Under the pieces are notes generated by a model. That model saw only the letters and a program-made list of their open reading frames with translations. It searched no databases and was not told where the DNA came from. Of a stretch of 64,000 nt of DNA, positions 10,005 through 63,039 are shown piece after piece. The stretch is from NCBI GenBank assembly GCA_044892525.1, contig CM097885.1, positions 11,968,001 through 12,032,000 on the forward strand, read 5' to 3'. The position numbers and the translations under genes were made by a program. The stretch is from Schmidtea polychroa (Eukaryota). Within the stretch, counting starts at the first letter, position 1, and each line of letters opens with the position of its first letter.

Positions 10005-11866
10005 ATTTATATTTATATTTATATTTATATATTTATAAAGGTAAATCATATTTTATTAGTAAAATAAAATCCAGAAAATAAAATGGAAAAATTTCAATTA
10101 AATACTTGAAATATTGAAGTAATTTCTTCACTTTTAAACAAATTGTTGACATGCATATAATTTTTACATCTAAAGTATTATATTATAAAATATTTTATTC
10201 GCAAATTATGAAAGAAAAATAAAAGTCGAGTCTCAATTTATCTCAATTTGTTTTAGTTTGACTTATCATGAAAATATACAGGAAATTATAAAAATTATTA
10301 ATTAGCAAAAAAGATTTTCCCTTAATTATTAATTCAATGCTTACTTTTCTGAAATATATTCTTTTAATTAAAAAACATTATTGCATAGAAGAAATGCTAA
10401 TAATAAAATGTTAACATCACATTTCTTATTGTTGGGTTTTAATAAATTTCGGTAGGTTCACAATTCAATCTGGCCCCAAGAGTATGGATGACGTCTCACA
10501 AATACCGGACATTTATCTTCGTGCTGTTTTTACATTAAATGTCAATGTCGTACCATTTTTTTGCTACCGACACTGATATTCACAAATTTAACATCCAGAT
10601 AAAATGGGAAATAATATTGTTATATAATTATATTATAAATTAAAAAATCACGTTATTAAACATCGTTACTTATAGTTAATCATTTGCACTACATGCCATG
10701 ATTGTGAATGTGAATTAGGAAATTTTGTAAATATTTGAGCACTGGAATGTGTTACATGTTGGTGTCATCTCAATTCTATGATTTACATCGACAATATTTC
10801 TTCATTTTTGTTAATTTATTCAAATTAATGGACGTAATTTCTTTACTATTATACATCTACTTGATTTGAGTTTTATATAATTTTCACTCAAATTTAATTA
10901 ATTCTATATTTAAATTACATTTTTACACTTCTTCACACTTTAACTAACTCTTTTTACTCTGCACACTTTTCAAAATCAACCTGAATCTTGCGTAGAGGTT
11001 AATCTTCAAACGTGAAATGTCCCATTCTGGTACGTTATATTCAAAATGACTAGGTTAGCACTAAGTTAAATTCACTTTTACTCTCTTTCCCTGTAAAATT
11101 ACTTTTCTTTCTTTGACCAACTGGCAATTCTTTTTAGTTGCCAGTTGCTTTAAGTAATTACCTGTCTAGTAATTTTATTATCTTCTTATCAATTTACTTT
11201 TGATACTTTCCTCCTGGCTTCCTCTTTCCGACTATTTATTTTTTGATAGTCAATCCTTATTTAATTACTCGTCGGTTAATTTTATTGCCTCTACCTAATT
11301 TGATTGACCACTTGGGTCCTCTTACACTGTTCGGGTTTTCAATTCGCTCAATTTTCCTATTAGCTAATTAATTTTTTAACTTTATTTTTATTATATTTGA
11401 CCTTTATTATATTATTATATTATATATTTATTATATTGTTCGACATCTGCCCATACCATTTCCTCCGGAATATATTCGCTTTTAATTTTTTTTAATTTTT
11501 AATTAATATTTTTGTACTTTAAATTAATACAGTGAATTTGATGTTTTTATTGATTTGCACCTTGTTTTTGTGCCTGTCTCGTCGAACCCCGAAATATTTG
11601 CTTTTCTGGCTCACTTAAAAATTAATTCAGTGATCAAAACCATTTTTTTGCTCTTATGAATCTTATGAATTAACTACAAGAAACAAACATTGACATCTTT
11701 CTGACTTAATTATAGATATTATAATAATTAAAACACAAATCAAAATCTTTTATTTTCAAAATAAAATAGAGTCAATTTTAATCACATACATTACTATGAA
11801 AAATATGAAAAGAAATTAAAACTTTATTTCACCTTTATAACTTGAATCATATTAAATTTTATTCAG

Positions 11867-12226
11867 TTCCACCGTCCCAACCTCTGATCTATGAAAACAA
11901 TAACAGACAACCAAGTTCGACAATTCTAATAACGATTTCGGCGAAAATGTACGACAATCATAATAAGAAGCTCAATCTAAAATGTGAATCCAAAGGAGGT
12001 CAACCAGATCCAACCTTTGAATGGTATCACAATTCTCAAATGTTGAAAGAACAGGAACTTTTAGTTAAAATAATCGATTACAAAACTCATAGTTTTTTGA
12101 CAATTAGTTTCACTCAATTAATGAATGGCGATTCAATAGCCTGTGCCGTTTCCAACAAGGCTACTTTACGGAACAGTCAAACAAGCCAAACCAAACTGAA
12201 AACAAGTGTGACAATAACCGTTAATA
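11867..12226 (+). CDS. Nephrin-like protein exon B (C2-type Ig domain)
   Basis: ttcAG acceptor, GTAAGT donor. VPPSQP...LKCESKGGQPDPTFEWY...IACAVSN...ITVN. Phase compatible with exon A. Confidence 0.9.
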
Positions 12227-12981
12227 GTAAGTAGTTGAACATTGTGCTTTATATTCATAATTATATTCAATATATTTCATTTATTTCTATTGCGATTATA
12301 GATCAATTTCTTTTTTCTTTATTTGTGTAACACAAGTTTTCAGCACTGTTTTTATTAAATGTTAATTAAAATATTTTATCATTTGTTTGTTTTGTTAGGA
12401 TTGTCTAGATTAATGATAGTATAAAATAGATTTTAAATGCACAGAAATGTAAAATTCCAAAAATAATAATTGAAATGGAAAAGATGATTAATAAATTAGA
12501 AAAGTTGATATTTTTCCAAGGACACGGATATGAGCAAAGGGCAAATGATGAAAAGAACACGAATATAGAGTAATATAAAAATGATTAAAAGCGGGTAGAC
12601 AAAGTTATTAAAGAAATACAGATTAATTAATTAATTAACTGTAATAAATTAAATAAATTAGATTAGAAGAAACTTTAAGCTTGACAGACAAAAGATCAAC
12701 CTATCAAGCAAATTAAATTGGTCCCGACTCCTTATAAGAGAATAATTTAATTAAAATGTAAAATGAGGCGAGAATTCCTATAAAAGAAGCTTTTGACTCA
12801 GGAAAACTAACATTTTGATCGATGAAAAAATAAGGGTGTTTTAAAAGTGAAGATAAAGTTTTAAAGCCGAGTCAGATTCGTTAAACTATTGTATTTGAGA
12901 CGGTGTCCCATATGAGTTGTATTGATTGAGTTCGAAAGATTGTAAACTGTTTTAATAGTAAAAGTTAAGAGGGATTTAATC

Positions 12982-18052: not shown

Positions 18053-18653
18053 TTATCATTTTTAAGTAACATTTCCACTGTCACTAACTATTGAATAAAT
18101 ATTCTAATGCCTTAAAATGACATTGACATCTGACGAAAATTTTACATTGTATAATAGGGTGGGTCGAAAATTTTTTTTTTCTCCAAACATGCCTAAAAAG
18201 TTGTGCTTATGCTAGAAAATGAAATATCCCTGCAAAAGACTGCTGTTTAAAAAGGTTTACAGGTCCCAACTTTTGTTTGTATGTATTAGTACTATCCCAG
18301 TAAAAATGCTCGCACACGTGCCATTGTAAATTCATCCTGCAAGCAGTCACACGCTTGCAGAAAGACCATTTTTGACATGCTCTATTCACAAGTCCAAGCT
18401 AACGCGTGCATGTATAGAGAGGTTAATTCACGGAAGCACCTTCACACAAGCACTCACAAAGACAATTTCTTCTGAACAATACTAACACACACACTACAGT
18501 CAACACATAATCCACATGGATACTACTAGTCAGTCTAAACTCAGATAATTTAATTTGTTTCGATTGGATGTCAAGTGTTTGCTGGACCTAATTAAAAAAG
18601 TAAACTTGATGATTCACTTTTATTTTGCCAGAGCTGAGTACAGAAGAGCAGTT

Positions 18654-21600
18654 ATGAAGGGACAGAGAAATAAGCAATTTCGCAAAACAAGAAGTAAATC
18701 ACGTCATTGTCTGTTTGGTCAAACTTGTGAACTACCCAGAAACCAATTACCTACTTGTGAAGATGTGTTTCGTGATTACTGTTACAATGAGAAATGTACG
18801 CAATTTCATACTGGCTTTAACGAACAAGCAACTCTTCTCGCAAAAAGGGTGAAGGAAATTTATATGAAGGCAAGTATCCCAACTGTTGAGTTCAGTAGTA
18901 TTGTGGTTCGTGTCAAGCGACTAATATCAAAAGTGCGTGAATTAGAGAAGTATCCAGAATGCAAGAGGTCATCTGCCAAATTTCAAGATAAGTTAAGCTC
19001 GTTTTCCAAATTGTTTGACATATGTTGCTGCAAATGTTTTAATGATGGTGCTCGTGGAAGAAGTCAGTGTACATGCCGATTGGCCTTGAAAATTCCTACC
19101 TTAGAGTGGGAGTTCTGGATTGACCAACAAACTACCAGAAACATGAAAATCGGAAATACGGACAGACAGGAAACCTCAAAATTGAAGAGAAAACAAACGA
19201 AAAGCAGCCCTACAGGAAAAGGAAAACAAATGAAAAATGAAATAATGGACACTGAAGTTAACGATCTACATCCGACCTCAAGAGGTGACACGGAGAGTGA
19301 AGCCGCTAGTGATGAAAGTAAAGATAAGTTAGACAATTCAACAGAAAGCTCAGAGTCAAGCGTAGAAGAATGTGATGAATTTCAAAATAGAATACATTAT
19401 CCTGAATTAAGTAAAGCTGTTGACAGATGTGGTGTGAGCAACAGAGACACGTGTTTGCTAGTAAACGCTTTTCTGAAAGATATGGAACTGTTATCCTCTC
19501 AAACAATCATCGATCCCGCAAAATTACGGCGTCAGAGAAAGTACTGGAGGGAGAGAGAAATTGAACAGCATTCAGCAGAAGCGAAAAACTTGATTTGCCT
19601 CGGTTTCGACGGGAAACAAGATTCCACCTTACTTCATAGAAGGATCCTAAAAGAGGAGCATTATGTGATTGTCGCCTTTCCAGGGGATACATATATCGAT
19701 CATGTTGTACCTCAAAGTAGTAAAGCTGTGGATATTGGCAAAGAAATCATGTCAATCATCGTTAGCACGCAGTCCTCACTGACCCTTCAAGCAATTGTGT
19801 GCGATGGAACCAATACAAACACCGGAAAAAATAATGGAATAATCAGAAGACTCGAAAAAAGCCTAGGGCGACCTCTACAATGGCTGATATGCTTGTAGTG
19901 AGCCGTTACACGGCCTTAACAATATCTATATACCTATTATACTATATTATATTATATTATATTATATATAAATGCGCGGTCACCAACGAATAAGGACCAA
20001 ACAGAACACAAGTATAGTCAATCAAAAGTCGTGCGATCAGCTAATACTTCTACTTATCAATCAGGCTCTATTAATCAATCTCAGACGAGTAAAGCAAATT
20101 CGATGCCATGTTATCATTATCAAGATAAACTGTATTCGGCTCCCAATAGTTTTAGTTTTGGCTTTCATAGACCAACACCCTCATCCATTACAATTCGCGA
20201 AATACGGAACAAATCCTAACAATAATATGAACCCGAAAAGATCTTTTTATCAAACCACCACACGTCTTTACAAATTCTGATCAAGGTGATAATGCAAAAA
20301 AGGATCAGAACGGCAAAGGATATACATTTCCTCAAATATTGTATGCGAATGACAATGGTCAAAATGGTTCATGGACAAATCGGCAGGCTGTAAAATCTTT
20401 AGAAATAATCGGACTATATGAAATTATTATTTTTAGTTAACATTTTGTAAATGAGAAATGCCTGTTGAATATGTTTACCTGGTCTGATTATATTTACATT
20501 TTTTATGTAGTTTCTATTATATATATATTTTTGTTTTACTCAGATCTGTAAATTTTTGTAATTCAAATTAAAAACCTTGTAATTAAAATTAAAAATATCT
20601 TTACCTGCAATTTGACTTATTCATCAGAATATTTTTATGAGTAAAATAAACGATATGCAAAAACCTCAATTGGGTTGTTTTTCGCTAGCTAAAAATTCTT
20701 ATTGTTATTCCAAAGATTCATTCGAATGCATGGATTCTCTAAAATATCTCAATGTAGAGAGCTTTGGAAATGATAACTTGCATTTTGCTGCATTATTAAT
20801 AAATGGTCATAATTGCCGAATTATAGTAGATAAATTATGTAAAAAAATTAAAGTCGAATTCGATGGAAGAAATTTTACGTCACTCACGGATTCCGATTCT
20901 ATAATGAATTATATTGGAAATGTTTTAGAGAAAATCGAACAAAATTTCTTCAATGCAATGTCTAATTTATTCAAGAACAAATCAGATCTTTTGCAAACCT
21001 GTAACTTAAAATTTGAAGTTGAACAAGGTAAAATATTAATTGAAATAGACAAAATAGATGATCAATTGAAAAGTGGGGCAACTATTGCCAAATTACCAGA
21101 AAGGACTACGCCAACCACAACAATGCTTGTTGCATGCAAATGAATTGCCATTCAGGAAGTATTTTTCAGTCGTCGATGGTGGAGAAACAAAAGGTCCAAA
21201 AACGTCATGTGGTGAAATAGGAAGCGTTCTTGATTTTGATCCAAAAGACAAGCCCGTAAGAGCCTTTATGTCCCTTCCTGGAAAGGTCGTAGATATTAGT
21301 GAAAATGTCAAGAAAGAATTGAACACTGATCAATTGTATTTCCTCAGAGTATGCTTGGCAGTCCAGAAAGGGTACCACAACAACAAGGATGTCCCTTTTC
21401 TACAAATGGCACAACCAGGAAATTTGAATCACAGTCGCTGGCTAACGAAAGCTAATAGAATTCTGCGACTATATATGTCCGAAACTGCTCCATCTGAACC
21501 TCTCATGCGAATAGTGAAATTTATTGTCAATTTCTATGGACCGTCATGGTTTTATATAAAGACTCACTCGTCATGCCAAGATGGTGCAAGAAATATTTTT

Positions 21601-22113
21601 TATATGCTCCAACTTCTGCAGGATTTGGATCCATCAGACCAAGAAATCATCTTTCCTGTCATTCAGAACAACAATTACTTCTCACATCCAGAAAATATAC
21701 TCCTAGCTGCTGTTGGTGATGATGATGAAGAAATCAGAAAGTTTGCAACAGAAAAAATCATAACTGCAAGACAAAATTTTCTCCCTTCCGAAGTGATTCG
21801 CACTATGGACAAGAATACTGTCTTTCTTCAGTCGTCTGCTACATCATATGTTGACATGATTGACTGGACAAAATGTAATTTGACGCCTCCTCCTCTTTTA
21901 TCTCATATATTGGATCATGAATTGAAGATGAATAAGAAAATTACATTAGAACAATTTCCCTGTCATTCTCAAGCCGTTGAAAGAGCCATCAAAGATGTTT
22001 CTTCTGCCAGTTGCAAAGTGTTTGGTCACAAGTCCAGACATGGTATGGTACTACTGTGTAAAAAATCAAGGAAGGAATTGCCCAAGGTGCAAAGCAAAGC
22101 TGATTTCATGTGA
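18654..22113 (+). pseudogene. hATm-like transposase (about 741 aa when rejoined), interrupted at 19894-21122
   Basis: Joining 18654-19893 to 21128-22113 gives one open frame (LQWLIC-LLHANEL). Motifs: GFDG, CDGTNTNTG, CxxH, HSRW, HSQAVERAIK. Confidence 0.9.
19894..21122. mobile_element. TG..CA-bounded insertion (solo-LTR-like), 1229 bp
   Basis: Starts TGTAGTG and ends CACAACA (6/7 inverted match). Flanked by ATGCT direct repeats (19889-93, 21123-27). Removal restores the transposase frame. Confidence 0.8.
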
Positions 22114-23346: not shown

Positions 23347-23404
23347 TCAGCAAGTGATGTAATTTTCAGTGCACCATGGAAAGTATGCAATAAAGCTGAA
23401 CTGC

Positions 23405-23446
23405 GTAGTACTGATGAGAGCCAAAAGCTCGAAACTAGTCTACTGT
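23405..23446 (+). ncRNA. Minimal type I hammerhead ribozyme, copy 1
   Basis: GTAGTA | CTGATGA | GAGC-CAAAA-GCTC | GAAA | C-TA-G TC | TACTGT. Complete catalytic core, 4-bp stem II, palindromic ACTAGT stem III region, GUC cleavage triplet, stem I with G-U pairs. Confidence 0.88.
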
Positions 23447-23504
23447 TGTGATTTGCACTGGGTATCACAAAGCTTGTGCTGTTTATATTATATAATTATT
23501 AATA

Positions 23505-30414: not shown

Positions 30415-30644
<230 letters not shown>

Positions 30645-30660
30645 CTTATTATTCATTTAG

Positions 30661-30993
30661 CTTTACCTGGCACTCCAAAAATAATTGATATTAAAAATAA
30701 AATAATAATATCAGAAGGCAAGTCTTTATCACTGTCTTGTCAATCACAGCCAGCTGGGGAACCCCCCGGAACAATCAAATGGGAATGGGCTGAGGATAAC
30801 AAAAAGCAATTAGATCCAAATAGATATGCATTATCCAAGGATTGGATCAACACATTTGTTGATTCAGGAATATTATTAAGTAGAATTACAATTCCAAAAA
30901 TTGATAGGAGCTACCATGGACTATTTCTACTTTGTAAACTGAATCATGATCTATTGGATGATCAAACTGATCAAGTGCAAATTTGGGTAGAAC
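30661..30993 (+). CDS. Nephrin-like protein exon C (Ig domain)
   Basis: tttAG acceptor, GTGAGT donor. LPGTPKI...LSLSCQSQPAGEPPGTIKWEW...SRITI...HGLFLLCKLNH...IWVE. Phase 1/1. Confidence 0.9.
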
Positions 30994-32959
30994 GTGAGTT
31001 TTATTGTATTTAATAATATTTCAAATATAATATATAATTGTAAATAAGGGTGCTCCACAATTTGAGACATCTCTAATACTATAATCATAACTCCCGACTA
31101 ATGAAAGAATAGAAAAATATGTTTAACAATAAAATTGCAAAATATTTTGGGTTGAAAAATCATTGCAATTCCTTTAAATTTTACCATTTATATATCTAAT
31201 AACGGTTAGCTATCATTCTACATTGTTAACATAATTGACTATTTTATTACAAATACAATCTTTTATCCTTTTCTGTTTTATCCTTTGACTGGATTGTCAT
31301 CAAGCCCTTATTTTCCATTTTCAATATTGATTAGTTCTTGCATTACATCTTGTCAGTCTTCAATCATATATTGAACGAAATAATGAGCATGTTGTGAATA
31401 TTGATTATTAACCACAGAGCTACGGGTATTAATAGAATCCATAATAACAAATTATATAACAAATTATTAATTTTATTATTCAATATACAAATATTATTGA
31501 AACAAATTATAATGTCAATTTTTTGAGGAGTTTCTAAAAAATAATAATTAATATATAAGTAAGAATTTCAATATACAATCAAACATGCACAACATCATAC
31601 CATTATTTTAATACAAATTACAAAAACGCCTCACATCTTCAATAGTGTGGATATCAAAAATAAATAAAAAAAAAATAATTCAAAATGTTGGTAAGTTTGA
31701 TAAACATCTGAATAAATAGAATAAGGAAAAATTTTGTGTCTAATAAATAAATGTTAAAAAATTTTATTTTTACAAAATTGTGATATATAAACAAAATTGT
31801 TTTTTCATCTTATTATCTGCACATAAATTCAGTTTTATAAATAAGTTTTAAACAATTCCAATTTATACAATTTTTGAAAATAGTCGATCAGTAAACCTTT
31901 AAAAAAATTATATTCATAAATCATGGCCACCAAAATATTTCATAATTTTTCATTTTTATGACTAATATTGAGAGAAAGTGACGAGATGAAAAAACTAAAA
32001 AATGCAATGATATTATAAATTAAATGAATCTTAATTTGTCGGCAAGATAAAGAAAAAAATTCTTTTAATTGAGAATTGTACACTTTATCTCGGTAATTCA
32101 AAATTCCCTTAAATGGTATTTTTTAATTTAATATTAATTGTTGGTTTTTCATTAAAACAAACATTTTGTCGCTGTAAAATGAATTTTTCAAAATCAAATT
32201 TCATTCAAAATATTGAATCATGGAAATGTCCACATGCGTAAAGAAATAAAAAAAATGAAAATAATGACTGCATGTTTTAAATAAATAAACGAAAGCACCA
32301 AACAATAGAAATATATTTCAATGAAATGATTACCCCCCCCCTTCATCAACCTGTGGTCTCAGAAATTGTCAAATGCAATATTTCGAAAACCAAAATTATG
32401 CTTTAGTTACAGTTTTATTAATTAATTAAATATTCTCGCCAAAAATGATACAAATGCATTTGAACAGACTACATAATTTAATACTTTTCCTATCATAATA
32501 TTCAAATAATAATAATTGCAGCGTCCGATTAATTATAAGAGAAAAGTACCGTTATTTCCAGAAATGCTGCAATATGGTGCATATTGATGGTTGAAGAAAA
32601 CTGGAAGCACTCAACGTGCACTTTTTTAACTTATCAAAAAGACTATTTTTGCAAATATAATATAAATATTGTAATGTAACGGATATGTGCTCAATACCGC
32701 TCGAAGCAAGAAAAGAAAAGGGGGAAAACCAGCACAAACCAAAATAGTATTGTTGCGACAAGATAGTATTATGATTAACCAGTTTTGTTTTTTTTCTAAT
32801 AAACTTTTATTCTTTTTGTGGCTATGTTTAAATGACCGTGTCTCAATTATATTAGGTATTTAATCTTTATTTTTGGAGACAAACAATAATTTTGGCGGTT
32901 AAATATTTATTTCTAGCAAACCCGTTGTAGGTAATTTTGTAGGTAATTTCATTAAATAA

Positions 32960-35834: not shown

Positions 35835-35882
<48 letters not shown>

Positions 35883-36072
35883 CATTTTTTAAGTTGTAAT
35901 GGTGTAAATGATTTTTCACACGCCATGTTTACAAGTTTGCAGATATTTCTTCTGTGATTTACTAACTTTCAAGTGATGTGATTTCCAGTGTTCCAGGGAA
36001 AGTATACAATAGAGTTGATTCAGCGATATTGTATACTTACCAGGTGCGAAGAGAAATCTTTGCGTCTCCTGC

Positions 36073-36114
36073 ATAGTACTGACGAGAGCCAAAAGCTCGA
36101 AACTAGTCTACTAT
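36073..36114 (+). ncRNA. Minimal type I hammerhead ribozyme, copy 2
   Basis: ATAGTA | CTGACGA | GAGC-CAAAA-GCTC | GAAA | C-TA-G TC | TACTAT. Perfect 6-bp stem I and complete core. Confidence 0.9.
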
Positions 36115-36150
36115 TGGGATTTGTACTGGGGTATCACAAAGCTTGTAATG

Positions 36151-36231
<81 letters not shown>

Positions 36232-37896: not shown

Positions 37897-38286
37897 ATGT
37901 CCAGCTACAAAGCCACTGGGATCAGTTTTGAATAATAACGGTTTGTCCATTTCAATATCATAAGATTATGCTATCATTGAACAACCTAATGGTCGCATTT
38001 CAGCCGATTGGGTGTAAAGCTGATTAATATCCGCAATACAACGACATATTAAGTCACAAGGCATTTCATATCCATTTTTATATTTAAATCGAGCTGCTTC
38101 CATTTGTGCACGACATACTTGAGATCGACAATCAGGGATCATACCAGTCATAAAACCTCCAGTACTTTCAGTAATATTAAAAAATCTTGTAGCTGAACTC
38201 TTCTCAATCATTTTATCTGGAACTTTTCTTTGTGTAGCTACTACACCACAATTATTGCCTCGAATACCAACGGAAAGCAATCCACC
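37897..38286 (-). pseudogene. PSMA6: Intronless fragment of proteasome subunit alpha type-6
   Basis: [23 protein letters not shown]...[54 protein letters not shown] matches alpha-6. In-frame TAA at 37966-68, then similarity continues (LFKTDPSGFVAGH). Both termini of the subunit are missing. Confidence 0.88.
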
Positions 38287-38651
38287 AAATAAATTTGATA
38301 TTAGTTGGCCAAAAACACCATTAACGTTATCAGGATCTCTTGGGGTCATAAAAAAGGAACCATCAGTTTTGTTTGTAGTATTTTCCATTTCCATTGAGTT
38401 ATCAGATTCAAAAGAACATTTATTCTCGATCATATTGCTTGATTCATAAATTTATTCATTAAATGCATTAAATTCATAAATTGCATAAATTCATTAAATC
38501 TTCATCGGAAAAATCATTATTCAAAAACTCAAATCCTTTATTAAAACACAAACCCAATCGACACCATTAACAACTCTGAGTCCAAAATTCAAATCAAATT
38601 CTAAATCTAAAAATTACAAAAACAAACTAATAAAAATTGCCATACCTCTTG

Positions 38652-40618: not shown

Positions 40619-41006
40619 CTATAAAGGGTTAAATGACATTTGACGACAGAAATTTGCTGAAAAAAATAAACCAATTGGAAACCAGCAAAACACTACGTCA
40701 GTTGACCTTTGTATTTTTTATTAAATTATTTTTAGGGATTTCAGATTTCTAATTGTGACTTTCATTATCATAATAAAGAAATTCTACAATATTAAAATAA
40801 ATAATAATAAAAATATTATTATAATAAAATGGATAATGATCTTAACCAAGGTATTCCTGACTCCGATCAACTATTATAAATAATAATACTAACAAGCATC
40901 AACAGGAATATCATAATAAATAATTCTTTTCTTATTCATTTTAATTTTTATTCAATTATATATATTCTTTACAGCTTTATATCAAAATAATTATTTCCAT
41001 ATGCAG

Positions 41007-41245
41007 ATGGTCCAGAAAATATAACCATAGACAGCTCAGTGGGAAAACCAAAGAAAATTACAAAGTACTCCAACAATTACATTGGAATGGATATTCCCAT
41101 AGTTTATGCTCAACCGAATCAGAAACTATTATTTCAGTGTACGACCTCTGCATATTACGGCACGGTCCATTTATCATGGTATGAAGGTGAAGATATCACC
41201 AACCATAAAGATAACTGGAAATTATTGGACCAGGTCACAACAGAA
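41007..41245 (+). CDS. Nephrin-like protein exon D (first half of Ig domain)
   Basis: gcAG acceptor, GTATAA donor. HGPENITI...LLFQCTTSAYYGTVHLSWY. Phase 1/0. Confidence 0.85.
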
Positions 41246-44029
41246 GTATAAATTATTATTTCCTTTATTTAGTTATATTCATTTTATAATGTAAAAATAT
41301 ATAAAACATTATATAAAACAATATATAGAACATATACATAAAACAAATATATAGAAAACAATATATAGAAACAATATATGATGTATGTTCTTAACACTAA
41401 TTATTGTGATTATGAAATTTATAAATTTAACTATTCATACTTTGTAGTGACTGTACTAATATATAGGCGAGAAAGCTGTAGAACCCTTTAGAGTCGCCTC
41501 TAAAAGTATGATGAAGCAATTGGGGTGTTTGTATGTATTTGTGCGAGTACTTCGTGTGTATATATGACAAAATACAATGTAATCAAATCAAATGAACAAC
41601 TAACAAAAGTAAACAACAATTTTAGATAACACCATATTACAAATTAAAACAAAATATAAAATCATATATAAAGTCATATAAAATCATCAACAACAGTTTA
41701 AATTAGTTATCTCGATTATATAATGCATTCTGCCAAACAATTAAAAATAATAAAAAGATAAAAGTGCAGAAAGTGCAGAATATTTGACGAAACTATATAT
41801 AATTAATTTTCTTCAGGATTACATTGACTTTACTTATTTTCTAGGCATAATTTAAAGTTCAAGAGCAATTTGAATATATTTAAATATGTTTAAACAAAAC
41901 CTGTAACACAAAGTTTGGTTTCATGAATTAAAATCTTAAAACTTTCGTTTGACATACTATCAAACATAAATTTTGATACACTCTTGTGTTTTATAATTTT
42001 ATTATTAATAGTTTTATTTATATATAAATGTTAAATATTTAATTAATTCAGATAATAATTACAATTATGACAACAAACCATAATGAAAGATATGGAAAAA
42101 CATGTTTGAGTCATGTTTTCGATGAGAAATATATCCAGAATAGCTGAAACTAACTAATGTTATACACCATTTCCAAATTGAATTAGTTAGCAGCAGATAA
42201 TTTGTACACAATATTCAGATGACATAATTTATGGTTGCATAGAAAGTACTCTTATACGTATTTAACTCAAAATTGTGTGCTCACTATTCATTATTATGTC
42301 TGTGAATAGAACTGGCTATATTTTCCCCATTGATTGTGACTGTATGCATTTAGTAAGTATGTGTGCATTCATCGAGCAGAATATACATTTTTCTTCTTAT
42401 AACAGATTGGGTTTGTAAATGGTGTATATAAAATGATAAAAATTAGAAATAGTCTAATCATAAGAAACATAATTATAAACTTGGTAAAATAGTGTGCCAA
42501 ATACTTGAAAATTGTCAATCAATGACGAAGAAAACAAAGGATTTGACTCATGACAATAAAATCAAACAATTTAATGTCAATTGAAAAATAAATATTTGTT
42601 TAACGAAGAAAACTTTCTTGATTAACTAATTTTAATATGAATTTGTAAAGTTTAATTACCATGCATTTTATATAATAAATTCCCTATTGGATTACCTTTT
42701 CAATATTTTCCCAACTGAATTAAGGACAAATATAAACACAAATACATATCAAATAAAACTTTAGTTAGAATAGTAAACAAAACTTTACATTTTTATTAAT
42801 TTCAAAGAATTATATGTAATTTTACATAGATTATTTTTATTTTAAAAATTTTTTATTTGTATTGATGAAACGAGAAATTAAATCTGATGTCGAATATTTG
42901 GATATATATTATTTATTATGAATCCAAGTTTGATATAATGAAGATATTATAGGCATATAAATACTGTCTATAATAGGAATTAAATCAGGAAGAAAACAAA
43001 TTGCCAATTAATTGTTAATTTTTGTATTGATGCTGACCTCTTTTAGGTTAATATATTTCATTTTTTGAATAATCACTGCCGATAACAATTACATTATTTT
43101 TATTTGAATTATATTTTAATAAATGATACCGCTATCGACAAGTTTATCTAATAAAAATTATTAGAATCAAAAATATCTGTATAAAGTCTGTACTGTAACA
43201 GTTAGGTTTAGTGTTTTTGTGTTATTGATAATATACAATATATGTTAGGCAAATGTATAAAAAATTTAAATCCTCAAATATTGTGTTGCATTGAAAGTTA
43301 ATTTTAGACCTTTTGTCATTAATAAAATGAATGAAATATCGAAAGAGACAAACAAAACGTTATTACTGATTATGCCATTCTGACAGATAGAGAAAGTTTA
43401 TAAATGCATGAAGGGACTATTTTTGAAAATATTTTACATATAGAACATAAAACTGCAGTTTTTTTTCATTTTGAAAATAGATTTTTAATTAAATTGTATC
43501 TCGAACAATAAAATTTCGTCTGTGGTATTTTTATGTTTGGCTACCCTTGGATCTGATCAAAAGTTGGCTCTTTATTTGTAATGTATTTTCATTTTATTCA
43601 TGCTTTTCTAATAATTTTCTTCATCAGTTTTGATAAAACATTTTGTTATAATAAGGTTTTTGCTGACCCACCAAGTGTTGCTAACATATTTTCATACTAA
43701 TCAGAAGACCATTCTTTAGTTAACTTTTTATTACGTTTTCTAAATATAATTACATAGGAATCTTCTTCAATTATATTTAATTTATACTAATTATAATTAA
43801 GAAATTCAGTTTTTTTATTCAAATTATTGATTCTGTTGTTTTAATCATTAGTTTACCTAGGTCATTAAAGCAATTAGCCTACATAATGATAAAACAACAT
43901 GTCTTTTTTCGCGCACTTCATTAAAAAATAATTATTATCAAAAATAGCAAATATGATAGTACTGAAAAAATAATTTTAGTTTTAATTTTCTTTAATGGTC
44001 TAAGAAGTAATGAACAACAATGATAGACT

Positions 44030-60200: not shown

Positions 60201-61040
60201 AATAACAGAAAGAGTTGATCGTTGAAACAAAAAGCCTCTTGGCAATACTTTTAATAATTGTATATCTTTTTCTGAAAGCAGTTTTTTTCTCATTAATTTT
60301 TCACTCACTTATTTATAATTGAATAAAAGTTACTGAAAGGCAGTATTTATTCGCGTTTTTATTATAAAATACCGATAAAATAATATTTTCATTTTTTAAA
60401 ATTAAAATTTTATAATTTGCAAAATTGAAACAATTTTTTATTTTATAATTAATGTCGTTCAAAAATGTTTAATTAAATTATATTTCCCGTTTAAGAAATA
60501 ATTTAAAAACATTTGGTAGTTTGCCAAAATGATCAAAAATAACTTTTGAGTAGTTATCAATAAATTCTTTATTGTTAAACTATATATTAACTTCACTTTG
60601 TATGTATGTTTAAATGTTAAAATTAATTAAATAATTCGATTTATTACTAAAGTATCAAAATCACTTTAAATGAAACAAATTAAATTTTTTTATTAATAAT
60701 GCTATTATTTTTTTTATCATTTACTATTCTAGTGATACATTTTATTCGATAACACTTATAATTAAAACAAATTGATTTCTAAATAATATTTATCCAATCA
60801 AATTCAAATGATATCTTAAGCAATATCATCATTCAATTTCAACATACAACAGAAACCCGAATATTTATAAATAGATTTTGCAACATTTTATCAAACTGTA
60901 TGTACATTCTGTAAATACAAGGCTGAAAAAAGTCAATCTTGCATATTTCTTAATGTACCCAATAATTAATTTATTTACTTAAAATAGTAACTAGTTTTGA
61001 ATAAAAAGTATTTTTTTAATATTCTGCACTTAATTTTAAG

Positions 61041-61312
61041 ATGTGAAATTACATCACCATTCCGATTGTTTGACAATCTCAAAAGTGATGAAAAAAAACT
61101 CCAGGTCTTCTATCCACCGACTAAACTTTCTCTGGCCATGGCAACTGAAAATTCAATGCGATCAGGAACATTCAATGCTTTCCATTGCCAAACCGATGAG
61201 TCCAATCCTGCGCCAGAAATAACATGGACAAAATATGATTGCGAAAATGAAATTTTTAATTACCAAATTGAAAGAGCGAAACTTTTAAAATGCGCTTTCA
61301 AAATCATTCAAA
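61041..61312 (+). CDS. Nephrin-like protein exon H (gene continues beyond window)
   Basis: ttaAG acceptor, GTGAGT donor. Completes Y-R-C with exon G, then LQVFYPP...FHCQTDESNPAPEITW. Phase 2/1. Confidence 0.9.
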
Positions 61313-63039
61313 GTGAGTATGACAAAACAAATTTTAAAACATTCACCATGTTTCATAGAAATATTCACTAAAACAAAAAATATTTTTCAAATTATTTTAA
61401 TATATTCATTACACTTCATTAATGTATAATTTGTTTTATATATTGTAATAAAAGTTATTTGTTATAATGTTATAATGTTATTAATGTTAACATTATAATG
61501 TTACAATACCTTTTTTCAGTTATTTTTTATATGCAATAACTCATTTTTAAAGTCTGTTTTTGAAGTCATTAAATTTAAAAAAATATTTCTTTATACATTT
61601 TAAAATCGCAAAGACAGTTGTCATGTTATCATTTGATTTTAAAATTAATGTTCATAAAATTTCTTTATAACCGATTATTTGCCACACCTTTACGCATATG
61701 ATGAGGTGCATTTTTCTTTAAAAGCCATTTTAGGGTTTGGTTAAATGTCATTCATGATCATTTTAAACCTGATTTGCCATTTATTAACAATAAATTAAAA
61801 ATAAATGTTTTTCATTTTTTTTATTTGTTTTAAAAAAATAATTCCATTAATTCATAGTTTTTTTCTTTGTGACATATCACGGCAACTTTTAATTTAATTT
61901 TTAATTTAAATAAATAGTTAATTTGTTAATAATTTCAATAATTTCTTAATTACAGCCACATAAATTTGTAGGATTAAAATATTAAGCTGAAAAAGCAATG
62001 GCGTACTGTAATTTTGTTTTAAAGAATTATGTAAAGTTTACGGTAACGAAGATCTATTTAATAAATGAAAAAGGCTTTAAAAAATTTTATTGTTAAATAA
62101 AAATTAAAAACTATATATGTAGATATTTATTAAAATGCTTGAAGACTATGAATCAGTAAAAATTTTGATTTTTTGGCTCTGCCATTTTCAATAATTTGTG
62201 AATATCAAAAACATCGATATATTTACTGATTCATAGTCTTCAAGTTTTTACGAATAGTCACTCCAAAATAACACATACTACAAAATACTATACTGCTTTA
62301 GGGATAAATAAGGACACAGACTTGGGTTAGGCTTTAAATTTTACTGCATTTAGATTGGATATGTTCTGAAATATGAAAAATCTACGAATAATGATTTCGA
62401 AATTATTTGAAAATTTTTATTGACTTTTAAATAAGAAACATCTTTGAACCACGAAAAGTGCATTTTCTGTGCTTTTCGTTAAAAATAATAAAAATATGTC
62501 ACTGTCTTAGAAAAGAGTGTAAAAAAGAAAGAAAGAACGTTTTGTATATGTAAATATTTGATATATTTACTTTGAAACATTATTCATAACATTTAATCAG
62601 GCAAATCAAGAAAGGAAATAATTAATTATATTACAATAATAATTAATTTAAAATATAGAAATCGACCAAAATTAAAATTAAAATTTTCCGAAAAATCCTT
62701 TTTTGCATTTGGTACCATTTGGCGCCTCTCTGTGTGTGGCATGATAGACTCCCTTGCTCCCTTCAATACGCAACCTTTTGCAAATCTGATAAAAATGTTA
62801 TTTATTAATGTAATCTTAAATGGAATTTAAAAAACAGATAGTTTTCAAAATGTGAAGTTTTGTAAGACAACGGAAATTTTGGAACGCTGACCGTCTTAAA
62901 ATAAACTGCAAATAGACTTATTGCAAATTCTTCTTTAAAGCTGAATTCTTTACCGGTCATGTTAGCTTTATTGTCATATCCTCGGAAATAAAAATATTTT
63001 TCCTATTCATTTAACTCAATTATGAAAACAAACAATGTA

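Follow-up and report, generated by a model that had tools for sequence, protein, structure and literature searches.

Does the hammerhead-like motif at positions 36073-36114 of the window, by which we mean the whole 64,000-nt stretch of Schmidtea polychroa DNA analysed here, represent an active ribozyme, and to which kind of element does it belong? The original prediction described an intact minimal hammerhead of the dimer type and took it for the mark of a ribozyme-bearing mobile RNA family. In our reading, which we hold with good confidence, the motif is the hammerhead of a non-coding repeat of 370-383 nt that resides in AT microsatellites as scattered single units and short arrays, likely a non-autonomous retrozyme that is copied from circular RNA by the enzymes of Penelope-like elements (PLEs).

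All nucleotides of the hammerhead core (CTGACGA, 36079-36085; GAAA, 36099-36102) are present, stem I consists of six Watson-Crick pairs (ATAGTA 36073-36078 with TACTAT 36109-36114) and stem II of four (GAGC/GCTC, loop CAAAA), exactly as predicted. With the core CUGANGA/GAAA/NUH, helices I and II of 6 and 4 bp and the palindromic ACTAGT, the motif corresponds to the canonical metazoan type I form as defined in PMC4209133 (helix I of 6 bp, helix II of 4 bp and a helix III of 1-2 bp with a palindromic loop), and the label 'minimal' has to be dropped: the motif has a helix III palindrome and no linked ORF and is thus not a minimal hammerhead of the PLE type. A search with Rfam Hammerhead_1 (RF00163), proposed as a check, recovered exactly 36073-36114 with an E-value of 2.4e-5; the 29.3 bits obtained, however, did not reach the gathering score of 34 bits, and the whole-window Rfam scan at the gathering score was therefore empty. 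It is the short stem III that lowers the score. With a strict descriptor (core, stem II of at least 4 bp and stem I of at least 6 bp) the window had two matching sites, and 60 locally shuffled windows gave no match at all. The folding energy of the 66-nt hammerhead piece alone was not significant (z -1.33).

Since two pairs around a 2-nt loop are impossible, stem III of the monomer is a single pair over CUAG. The prediction of about one pair around a self-complementary ACUAGU thereby agrees with the dimer-type geometry described in PMC4209133 and PMC7229834, and the axolotl ribozyme HHR_Amex1, which cleaves better as a dimer, likewise has a single-pair stem III and a palindromic tetraloop (PMC7229834). 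A bare double-hammerhead was calculated at -18.8 kcal/mol, two monomers lacking stem III at -13.4 kcal/mol. Nearest-neighbour folding of tandem dimers, for which two of the five tandem loci were parsed, gave a probability of 0.00-0.01 for the dimeric stem III, and the ensemble of every construct, monomer or dimer, preferred an off-path pairing of the core with GUC. Because this pairing is preferred in both, folding supports neither the monomer nor the dimer as the active form. In vitro cleavage has been reported for just one of nine predicted dimers (Li et al., preprint 10.64898/2026.07.22.740005). With its nearest partner at a distance of 12.7 kb, the decayed copy in the window stands alone as a monomer and is therefore probably not the active form, a part that would fall to the young tandem arrays. 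It is an older truncated product, probably inert or weakly cleaving, and is probably tolerated as a weak cutter.

Table 1. Coordinates of the retrozyme copies, their parts and their surroundings in the window.
Feature	Position	Strand	Remarks
Canonical type I hammerhead motif	36073..36114	+	predicted cut after C36108; stem III palindrome ACTAGT 36102-36107
Extended helix I	36067..36119	+	TCCTG 36067-71 pairs with TGGGA 36115-19, bulged C36072; from folding
5'-truncated retrozyme monomer	35908..36157	+	unit positions 171-372, then 1-48 past the cut; 92% identical to reference unit
Inverted 5' fragment of retrozyme unit	35880..35919	-	unit positions 69-109, 86%; Penelope-type 5' inversion
Left (TA)n microsatellite, insertion target	35835..35881	.	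from sequence
Right (TA)n microsatellite, insertion target	36153..36229	.	from sequence
U1 snRNA-like head	36033..36051	+	2 substitutions (T10A, C13T) versus family consensus ATACTTACCTGGCGCGAAG
Hairpin +11 to +34, closing on GGCGCG part of head	36043..36066	+	from folding
Upstream arm and apical loop of long hairpin	35990..36032	+	would hide the U1-like head when the monomer is circular (prediction)
Weak PSE-like site	35966..35974	+	family TTTGCAAGT, -67 from U1-like +1; decayed in window copy; putative promoter part
Second, shorter family copy	23350..23491	+	intact hammerhead core 23405-23446; U1-like head internally deleted; between (TAT)n arrays
Ig-domain-like reading frames	11809-12234, 30642-31013, 40991-41251, 60991-61371	+	Pfam hits for the first two

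The Ig-domain frames (Table 1) suggest that one large cell-surface gene extends across the window and that both retrozyme copies are intronic and in sense orientation. The copy at 36073-36114, a decayed, 5'-truncated and 5'-inverted monomer between Ig-domain exons, is in itself ordinary. The extension of stem I past the bulged C, the second copy and the 370-nt repeat unit had been missed by the prediction, and the interval it had delimited does not reach the U1 snRNA-like head, which is the most unusual part.

In the S. polychroa genome assembly (781 Mb, four large contigs, AT-rich) the exact 30-nt core is present in 881 copies, and 1,626 looser core matches compare with 70 for a reversed control; the 30-nt spacing of the family was found in all of the first 100 core matches listed. 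Together with the retrozyme architecture, these copy numbers, the determination of which had been suggested, substantiate the assumed mobile family. Successive cut sites are 348-383 nt apart (nine extracted units), arrays comprise up to 11.5 units, and the unit is non-coding with a GC content of 37%. Neither an ORF of at least 150 aa common to the family loci nor an ORF with reverse transcriptase (RT) and GIY-YIG domains within the element was found. When folded as circles, all four units tested were 6.4-9.9 SD more stable than shuffled sequences (z -6.4 to -9.9), the young 378-nt unit having a z of -8.8. The family thus combines the properties of metazoan non-LTR retrozymes: units of 348-383 nt with one type I hammerhead each, a GC content below 50% and a self-paired predicted circle. 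An Rfam search of one full array revealed hammerheads and nothing else, the genome-wide search with RF00163 gave no match among the 73 candidates scored of 61,077, and a strict-pattern search identified no canonical hammerhead with another stem III palindrome. Covariation in the stems, named beforehand as a check, did not appear: of 734 stem cells 695 were unchanged, 9 had one-sided changes, 30 were broken and none was compensatory. This check is powerless within the S. polychroa genome because the copies are young. The circles of the old and the young subfamily share 103 pairs, with seven one-sided and no two-sided changes. Among the sequencing runs, all of them assembled contigs, letters of the young subfamily had higher shares in X1 and X2, which may be RNA, than in X7; we give this difference no weight as a sign of expression. 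Part of the unit may resemble a spliced-leader RNA.

The family consensus ATACTTACCTGGCGCGAAG is located 46 nt upstream of the catalytic core. Compared with the U1 genes of the host, which were found with RF00003, this head matches 16 of 16 positions for the C1 genes and 18 of 19 for the large C4 array. The chance of the 16-mer occurring in the unit is about 4e-8, and head and core together gave 1,196 matches genome-wide versus none for the control. We are therefore fairly sure that the head is truly derived from U1. Downstream of it no U1-70K loop, U1A loop or Sm site and elsewhere in the unit no other part of U1 was found, so that the head cannot form an snRNP by itself. Its conservation was followed in 26 distinct insertions in genome order (30 loci minus 4 duplicates of the same array or segment). 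ATACTTACCTGG was intact in just 14 of these, and 12, including both window copies, are without an intact head. Compared with its neighbours, the head has not been better preserved among the genomic copies (4.4% differences versus 2.4-2.7%). The old and the young subfamily have the same head, whereas three positions of the opposite arm are variable, in 27-63% of the copies.

Which role may the head have? A captured snRNA start site is the likeliest one, and we tentatively propose, as a plausible though not yet a probable assignment, that the head marks a working snRNA-type start. An snRNA-type Pol II promoter within each unit would then drive transcription of the tandem arrays, with the U1-like +1 as the likeliest start. 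This proposal follows the example of newt satellite 2 (Coats et al. 1994, via PMC2220036), a tandem repeat with a dimer-type hammerhead that is cited as having an internal snRNA-type Pol II promoter; in the planarian family the link to snRNA is a transcribed U1 sequence and the promoter is putative. A TATGYAARW-like site (at most one mismatch; motif picked by eye) is present at -68 to -70 in 4 of 10 upstream regions of host snRNAs. The retrozyme unit matches the same 9-mer at -67 and equally well at -30. A position weight matrix placed the site of the element at rank 10 of 370 (old) and 45 of 378 (young), a result of low power given that real snRNA genes themselves ranked between 5 and 50 of 387 in a leave-one-out comparison; a de novo search of the snRNA upstream regions found no coherent motif. 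Insertions show no accumulation of 5' ends at the U1-like +1 (5 of 32 within 16 nt, about 2.8 expected). According to folding, any transcript that starts at +1 would be cleaved to a 76-nt RNA whose ten U1-like 5' bases are largely unpaired, whereas the circle would mask them. It is conceivable, though rather unlikely, that the retrozyme captured the start of a U1 gene, carries an snRNA promoter in its own RNA and releases a capped 76-nt RNA as a selfish mimic of U1. If so, each round of transcription would start like that of U1, the free 5' end would be a U1 anti-5'-splice-site able to touch host splicing, and the replicating circle would hide the anti-splice-site sequence in a hairpin.

The same retrozyme could use its head as RNA, either by pairing with 5' splice sites of host or driver-element RNA or by switching internal partners to time the cleavage, with transcription being due to read-through. 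We regard this as possible but doubtful. The block conserved across species spans the region from the head to the downstream CTGGGTA tract, and it is sequence, not position alone, that has been kept. Alternative pairing partners of the head are predicted on both sides: in the +1 transcript it would pair with CTGGGTA (p 0.6-0.8), in the circle with the upstream arm, and in the 76-nt fragment it would be free. With such internal partners the head could be conserved without any U1-like role. The missing U1-70K loop, U1A loop and Sm site and the predicted masking of the head in the circle speak against this use of the head.

Still less likely in our view is that the match to U1 is a coincidence or a neutral relic, that is, an antisense 5' splice site or the hitch-hiking outcome of a one-off template switch onto U1 RNA. 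Eleven of the matched bases are indeed the complement of CAG/GTAAGTAT, and head-less copies exist, the second window copy among them. The match, however, continues for 5-8 nt into U1's own stem sequence, and given a plain antisense splice site the five further letters have a p of 2e-4. The constancy of the head between old and young copies with a variable opposite arm also argues against a neutral relic, as does its retention in organism B.

A related element is present in a second organism, organism B (run X6), where read depth climbs from 20 to 313 in the bin that contains the start of the head and the cover ends shortly past the ribozyme. Loose ends keep CTTACCTGGCGC, and the upstream hairpin consists of other self-complementary letters; loop II is changed, and no stem change is among the changes listed. 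This evidence consists of 30-nt loose-end consensuses of 1-15 contigs with an agreement of 0.5-1.0 and with variants among the rows listed. Organism B also seems to have two or more other families that share this ribozyme and differ in the hairpins flanking the U1-like head.

Several other U1-like sequences were noted in the S. polychroa genome. From C4:74.00 Mb onward, units of about 1.77 kb, each with two different U1 variants, form a large tandem array that amounts to about 250 matches on one strand. Many other divergent U1 variants occur elsewhere, several of which start with AAACUUAC or AAACUAAC and are clustered with U5 on C1. Within an snRNA cluster at C1:80.769 Mb (L033, minus strand, near 701), a U1-like head (18 of 19 identical to that of the retrozyme) is followed by a non-U1 body; this site is probably a decayed U1 paralog. 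Eight further U1-like heads with odd downstream letters and five more sites from this search turned out to be copies of the element with internal deletions or truncations, except for one U1 pseudogene (L208), and no longer U1 intermediate was found among these sites.

How the unit moves can be deduced from its insertions. An inverted 5' piece adjoins 8 of the 26 distinct insertions, and two hammerheads in tandem occur in 3 of them. The young subfamily was identified with one unit as query, and 32 insertions were sampled from the best full-length hits, for which reason all of them are longer than one unit. With lengths of 1.07-11.48 units, these insertions share 97.6-100% identity with a single 378-nt unit. 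Their 5' ends are scattered over unit positions 1-376, and their 3' ends are located 46-52 nt past the cut in 29 of 32 cases (two at 96 nt and one at 30 nt). The right flank is microsatellite-like in 30 and both flanks in 23 of the 32. Duplications of about 9-11 nt were recognised by eye at three of the nine insertions that do not have a microsatellite on both sides (L176, L180, L182). A 3' end fixed beyond the cut, intact junctions and fractional unit numbers indicate that the template spanned the cleavage site; this template would have been either circular after ligation or a tandem RNA left uncut. Partial tandems, inverted 5' copies, tail extensions and a bias for microsatellites are hallmarks of PLEs (PMC8557442), and all of them, together with 5' truncation, are present in the family. 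PLEs with hammerheads in their pseudo-LTRs (pLTRs) furthermore end just past the ribozyme (PMC4209133, PMC8557442). The retrozyme differs from them by the absence of an RT/GIY-YIG ORF, by a canonical instead of a minimal hammerhead and by long arrays of identical units. Mobilisation by a Penelope-like element is, in our opinion, very probable.

We propose the following course of events after transcription. As the published geometry suggests, neighbouring hammerheads would pair their ACUAGU sequences to a 6-bp stem III and cut after GUC, by which unit-length RNA is freed. A host ligase would circularise the monomer, which according to the computed fold is strongly self-paired, has a lone hammerhead without stem III and masks the U1-like head. 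A Penelope-like RT/GIY-YIG protein would then nick AT-rich microsatellites, and reverse transcription from about 50 nt 3' of the cut around the template would yield 1-11 identical units, with 5' ends that vary and with 5' inversions.

Candidates for such an enzyme are resident in the genome, in which at least three PLE families were recognised (150 of 2,572 GIY-YIG candidates scored, 50 loci examined). The first is young and intact, with near-identical copies inserted in (AAT)n at C4:27.19 Mb, C2:183.47 Mb and C1:70.81 Mb (L103, L104 and L105); the intact ORF of L104 (2716-5283, plus strand) codes for 856 aa with RT and GIY-YIG domains and a Cys-rich linker. Its pLTR has a hammerhead-like motif with the core TTGACAA, a U3-A8 variant type as reported in PMC4209133. 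The second family (L075-L122, e.g. L089 and L109) is 28% identical to the first over 310 aa and has a U3-A8-type core TTGAAAA. In the third (L123) the GIY-YIG end was confirmed, and the hammerhead has a canonical core and a TTAA palindrome. In two of the families the element stops about 50-60 nt after its own hammerhead-like motif, frequently within (AAT)n. The supplement of PMC4209133 also lists a planarian PLE ribozyme, which differs from that of the window family. The retrozyme unit was not found as the pLTR of a PLE; it occurred in 2 of the 50 GIY-YIG loci, in both apparently as a separate decayed insertion, and BLAST detected no homology between the unit and the three families. Its 3' tail weakly resembles that of PLE family A (p 0.02-0.03; one of three families compared; AT-rich).

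These data also bear on the idea that the repeat is no independent non-autonomous unit, rather a solo or tandem pLTR of an unsampled autonomous Penelope-like family. Such pLTRs carry hammerheads and give rise to truncated, inverted and partial-tandem insertions (PMC4209133, PMC8557442), Xenopus retrozymes are homologous to pLTRs (preprint 10.64898/2026.07.22.740005), and the fraction of GIY-YIG candidates scored leaves room for a further family. We nevertheless consider it improbable: arrays contain up to 11.5 identical full units with no ORF in between, the pLTRs of the three PLE families seen are unrelated, and 60 family loci have no shared 5' flank or adjoining RT ORF, the PLE fragments in five of them belonging to family A with its own different ribozyme. 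That the arrays are DNA-level satellites produced by unequal crossover or slippage, a route proposed for vertebrate retrozymes (preprint 10.64898/2026.07.22.740005) that would account for the identity of units within an array and make the ribozyme a passenger, is very improbable: the unit occurs at numerous unlinked sites spread over four chromosomes, with a single fixed 3' end, fractional unit numbers, scattered 5' ends and some target duplications.

A non-autonomous retrozyme mobilised by a PLE, as we prefer to interpret the family, has well-described relatives. Non-LTR retrozymes are already known, platyhelminths in general included. Those of metazoa are described as non-coding tandem units of 150-450 bp with one type I hammerhead each, a GC content below 50%, a compact predicted circle, monomers as well as multimers, and co-occurring PLEs (PMC7229834; preprint 10.64898/2026.07.22.740005), from which they have been argued to derive (same preprint). 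To the extent that these sources describe them, the S. polychroa family deviates by its U1 snRNA-derived head and by having no pLTR homology to resident PLEs; its circle is a predicted one. An snRNA-derived piece in a short retroposon is known from SINEU of crocodilians (Kojima 2015, PMC4494074). There the U1-derived sequence is at the 5' end, and the available text of that source describes no ribozyme and no identified promoter. In the retrozyme, by contrast, the U1 piece comprises 16-19 nt and is internal to a circularly permuted unit, and 5' ends are not clustered there; unlike SINEU, a unit arranged in tandem or as a circle could take upstream promoter DNA along in its own RNA. Sm-alpha of schistosomes similarly joins a sequence derived from a small-RNA gene to a hammerhead in a repeat, with a tRNA-like Pol III promoter in place of a U1 head (PMC2770079, PMC2220036). 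No description of a U1-headed retrozyme or of the window family was found in literature titles and abstract starts, and the consulted passages of PMC5680766 and PMC2770079 contain nothing on a U1-headed retrozyme. We see in the family a recently mobile non-LTR retrozyme, as such of a known type, to which a probably U1-derived head is the new addition.

In the literature consulted it is an open question how animal retrozymes are transcribed and copied back into DNA. The family provides an unusually clean test case, with dozens of sites occupied by an identical young unit, a priming end fixed about 50 nt beyond the cut, intact resident Penelope-like ORFs as candidate drivers and a U1-marked candidate start site. 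If the head is functional, a selfish ribozyme circle would be linked to the splicing machinery, and one way would be found in which a retroposon makes use of an snRNA gene with an upstream promoter, a problem raised for SINEU (PMC4494074).

The window contains other sequences that appear to be mobile. A 592-aa hAT transposase-like ORF (PF05699) is present at 822-2600 on the minus strand. Two long ORFs (449 and 347 aa) at 18549-22113 on the plus strand gave no Pfam hit; we take them to resemble a split DNA transposase. At 37966-38451 on the minus strand, a proteasome-subunit fragment (PF00227) is fused to a sequence of other origin, similar to an ORF in L012/L017, and this is possibly a gene-capturing repeat.
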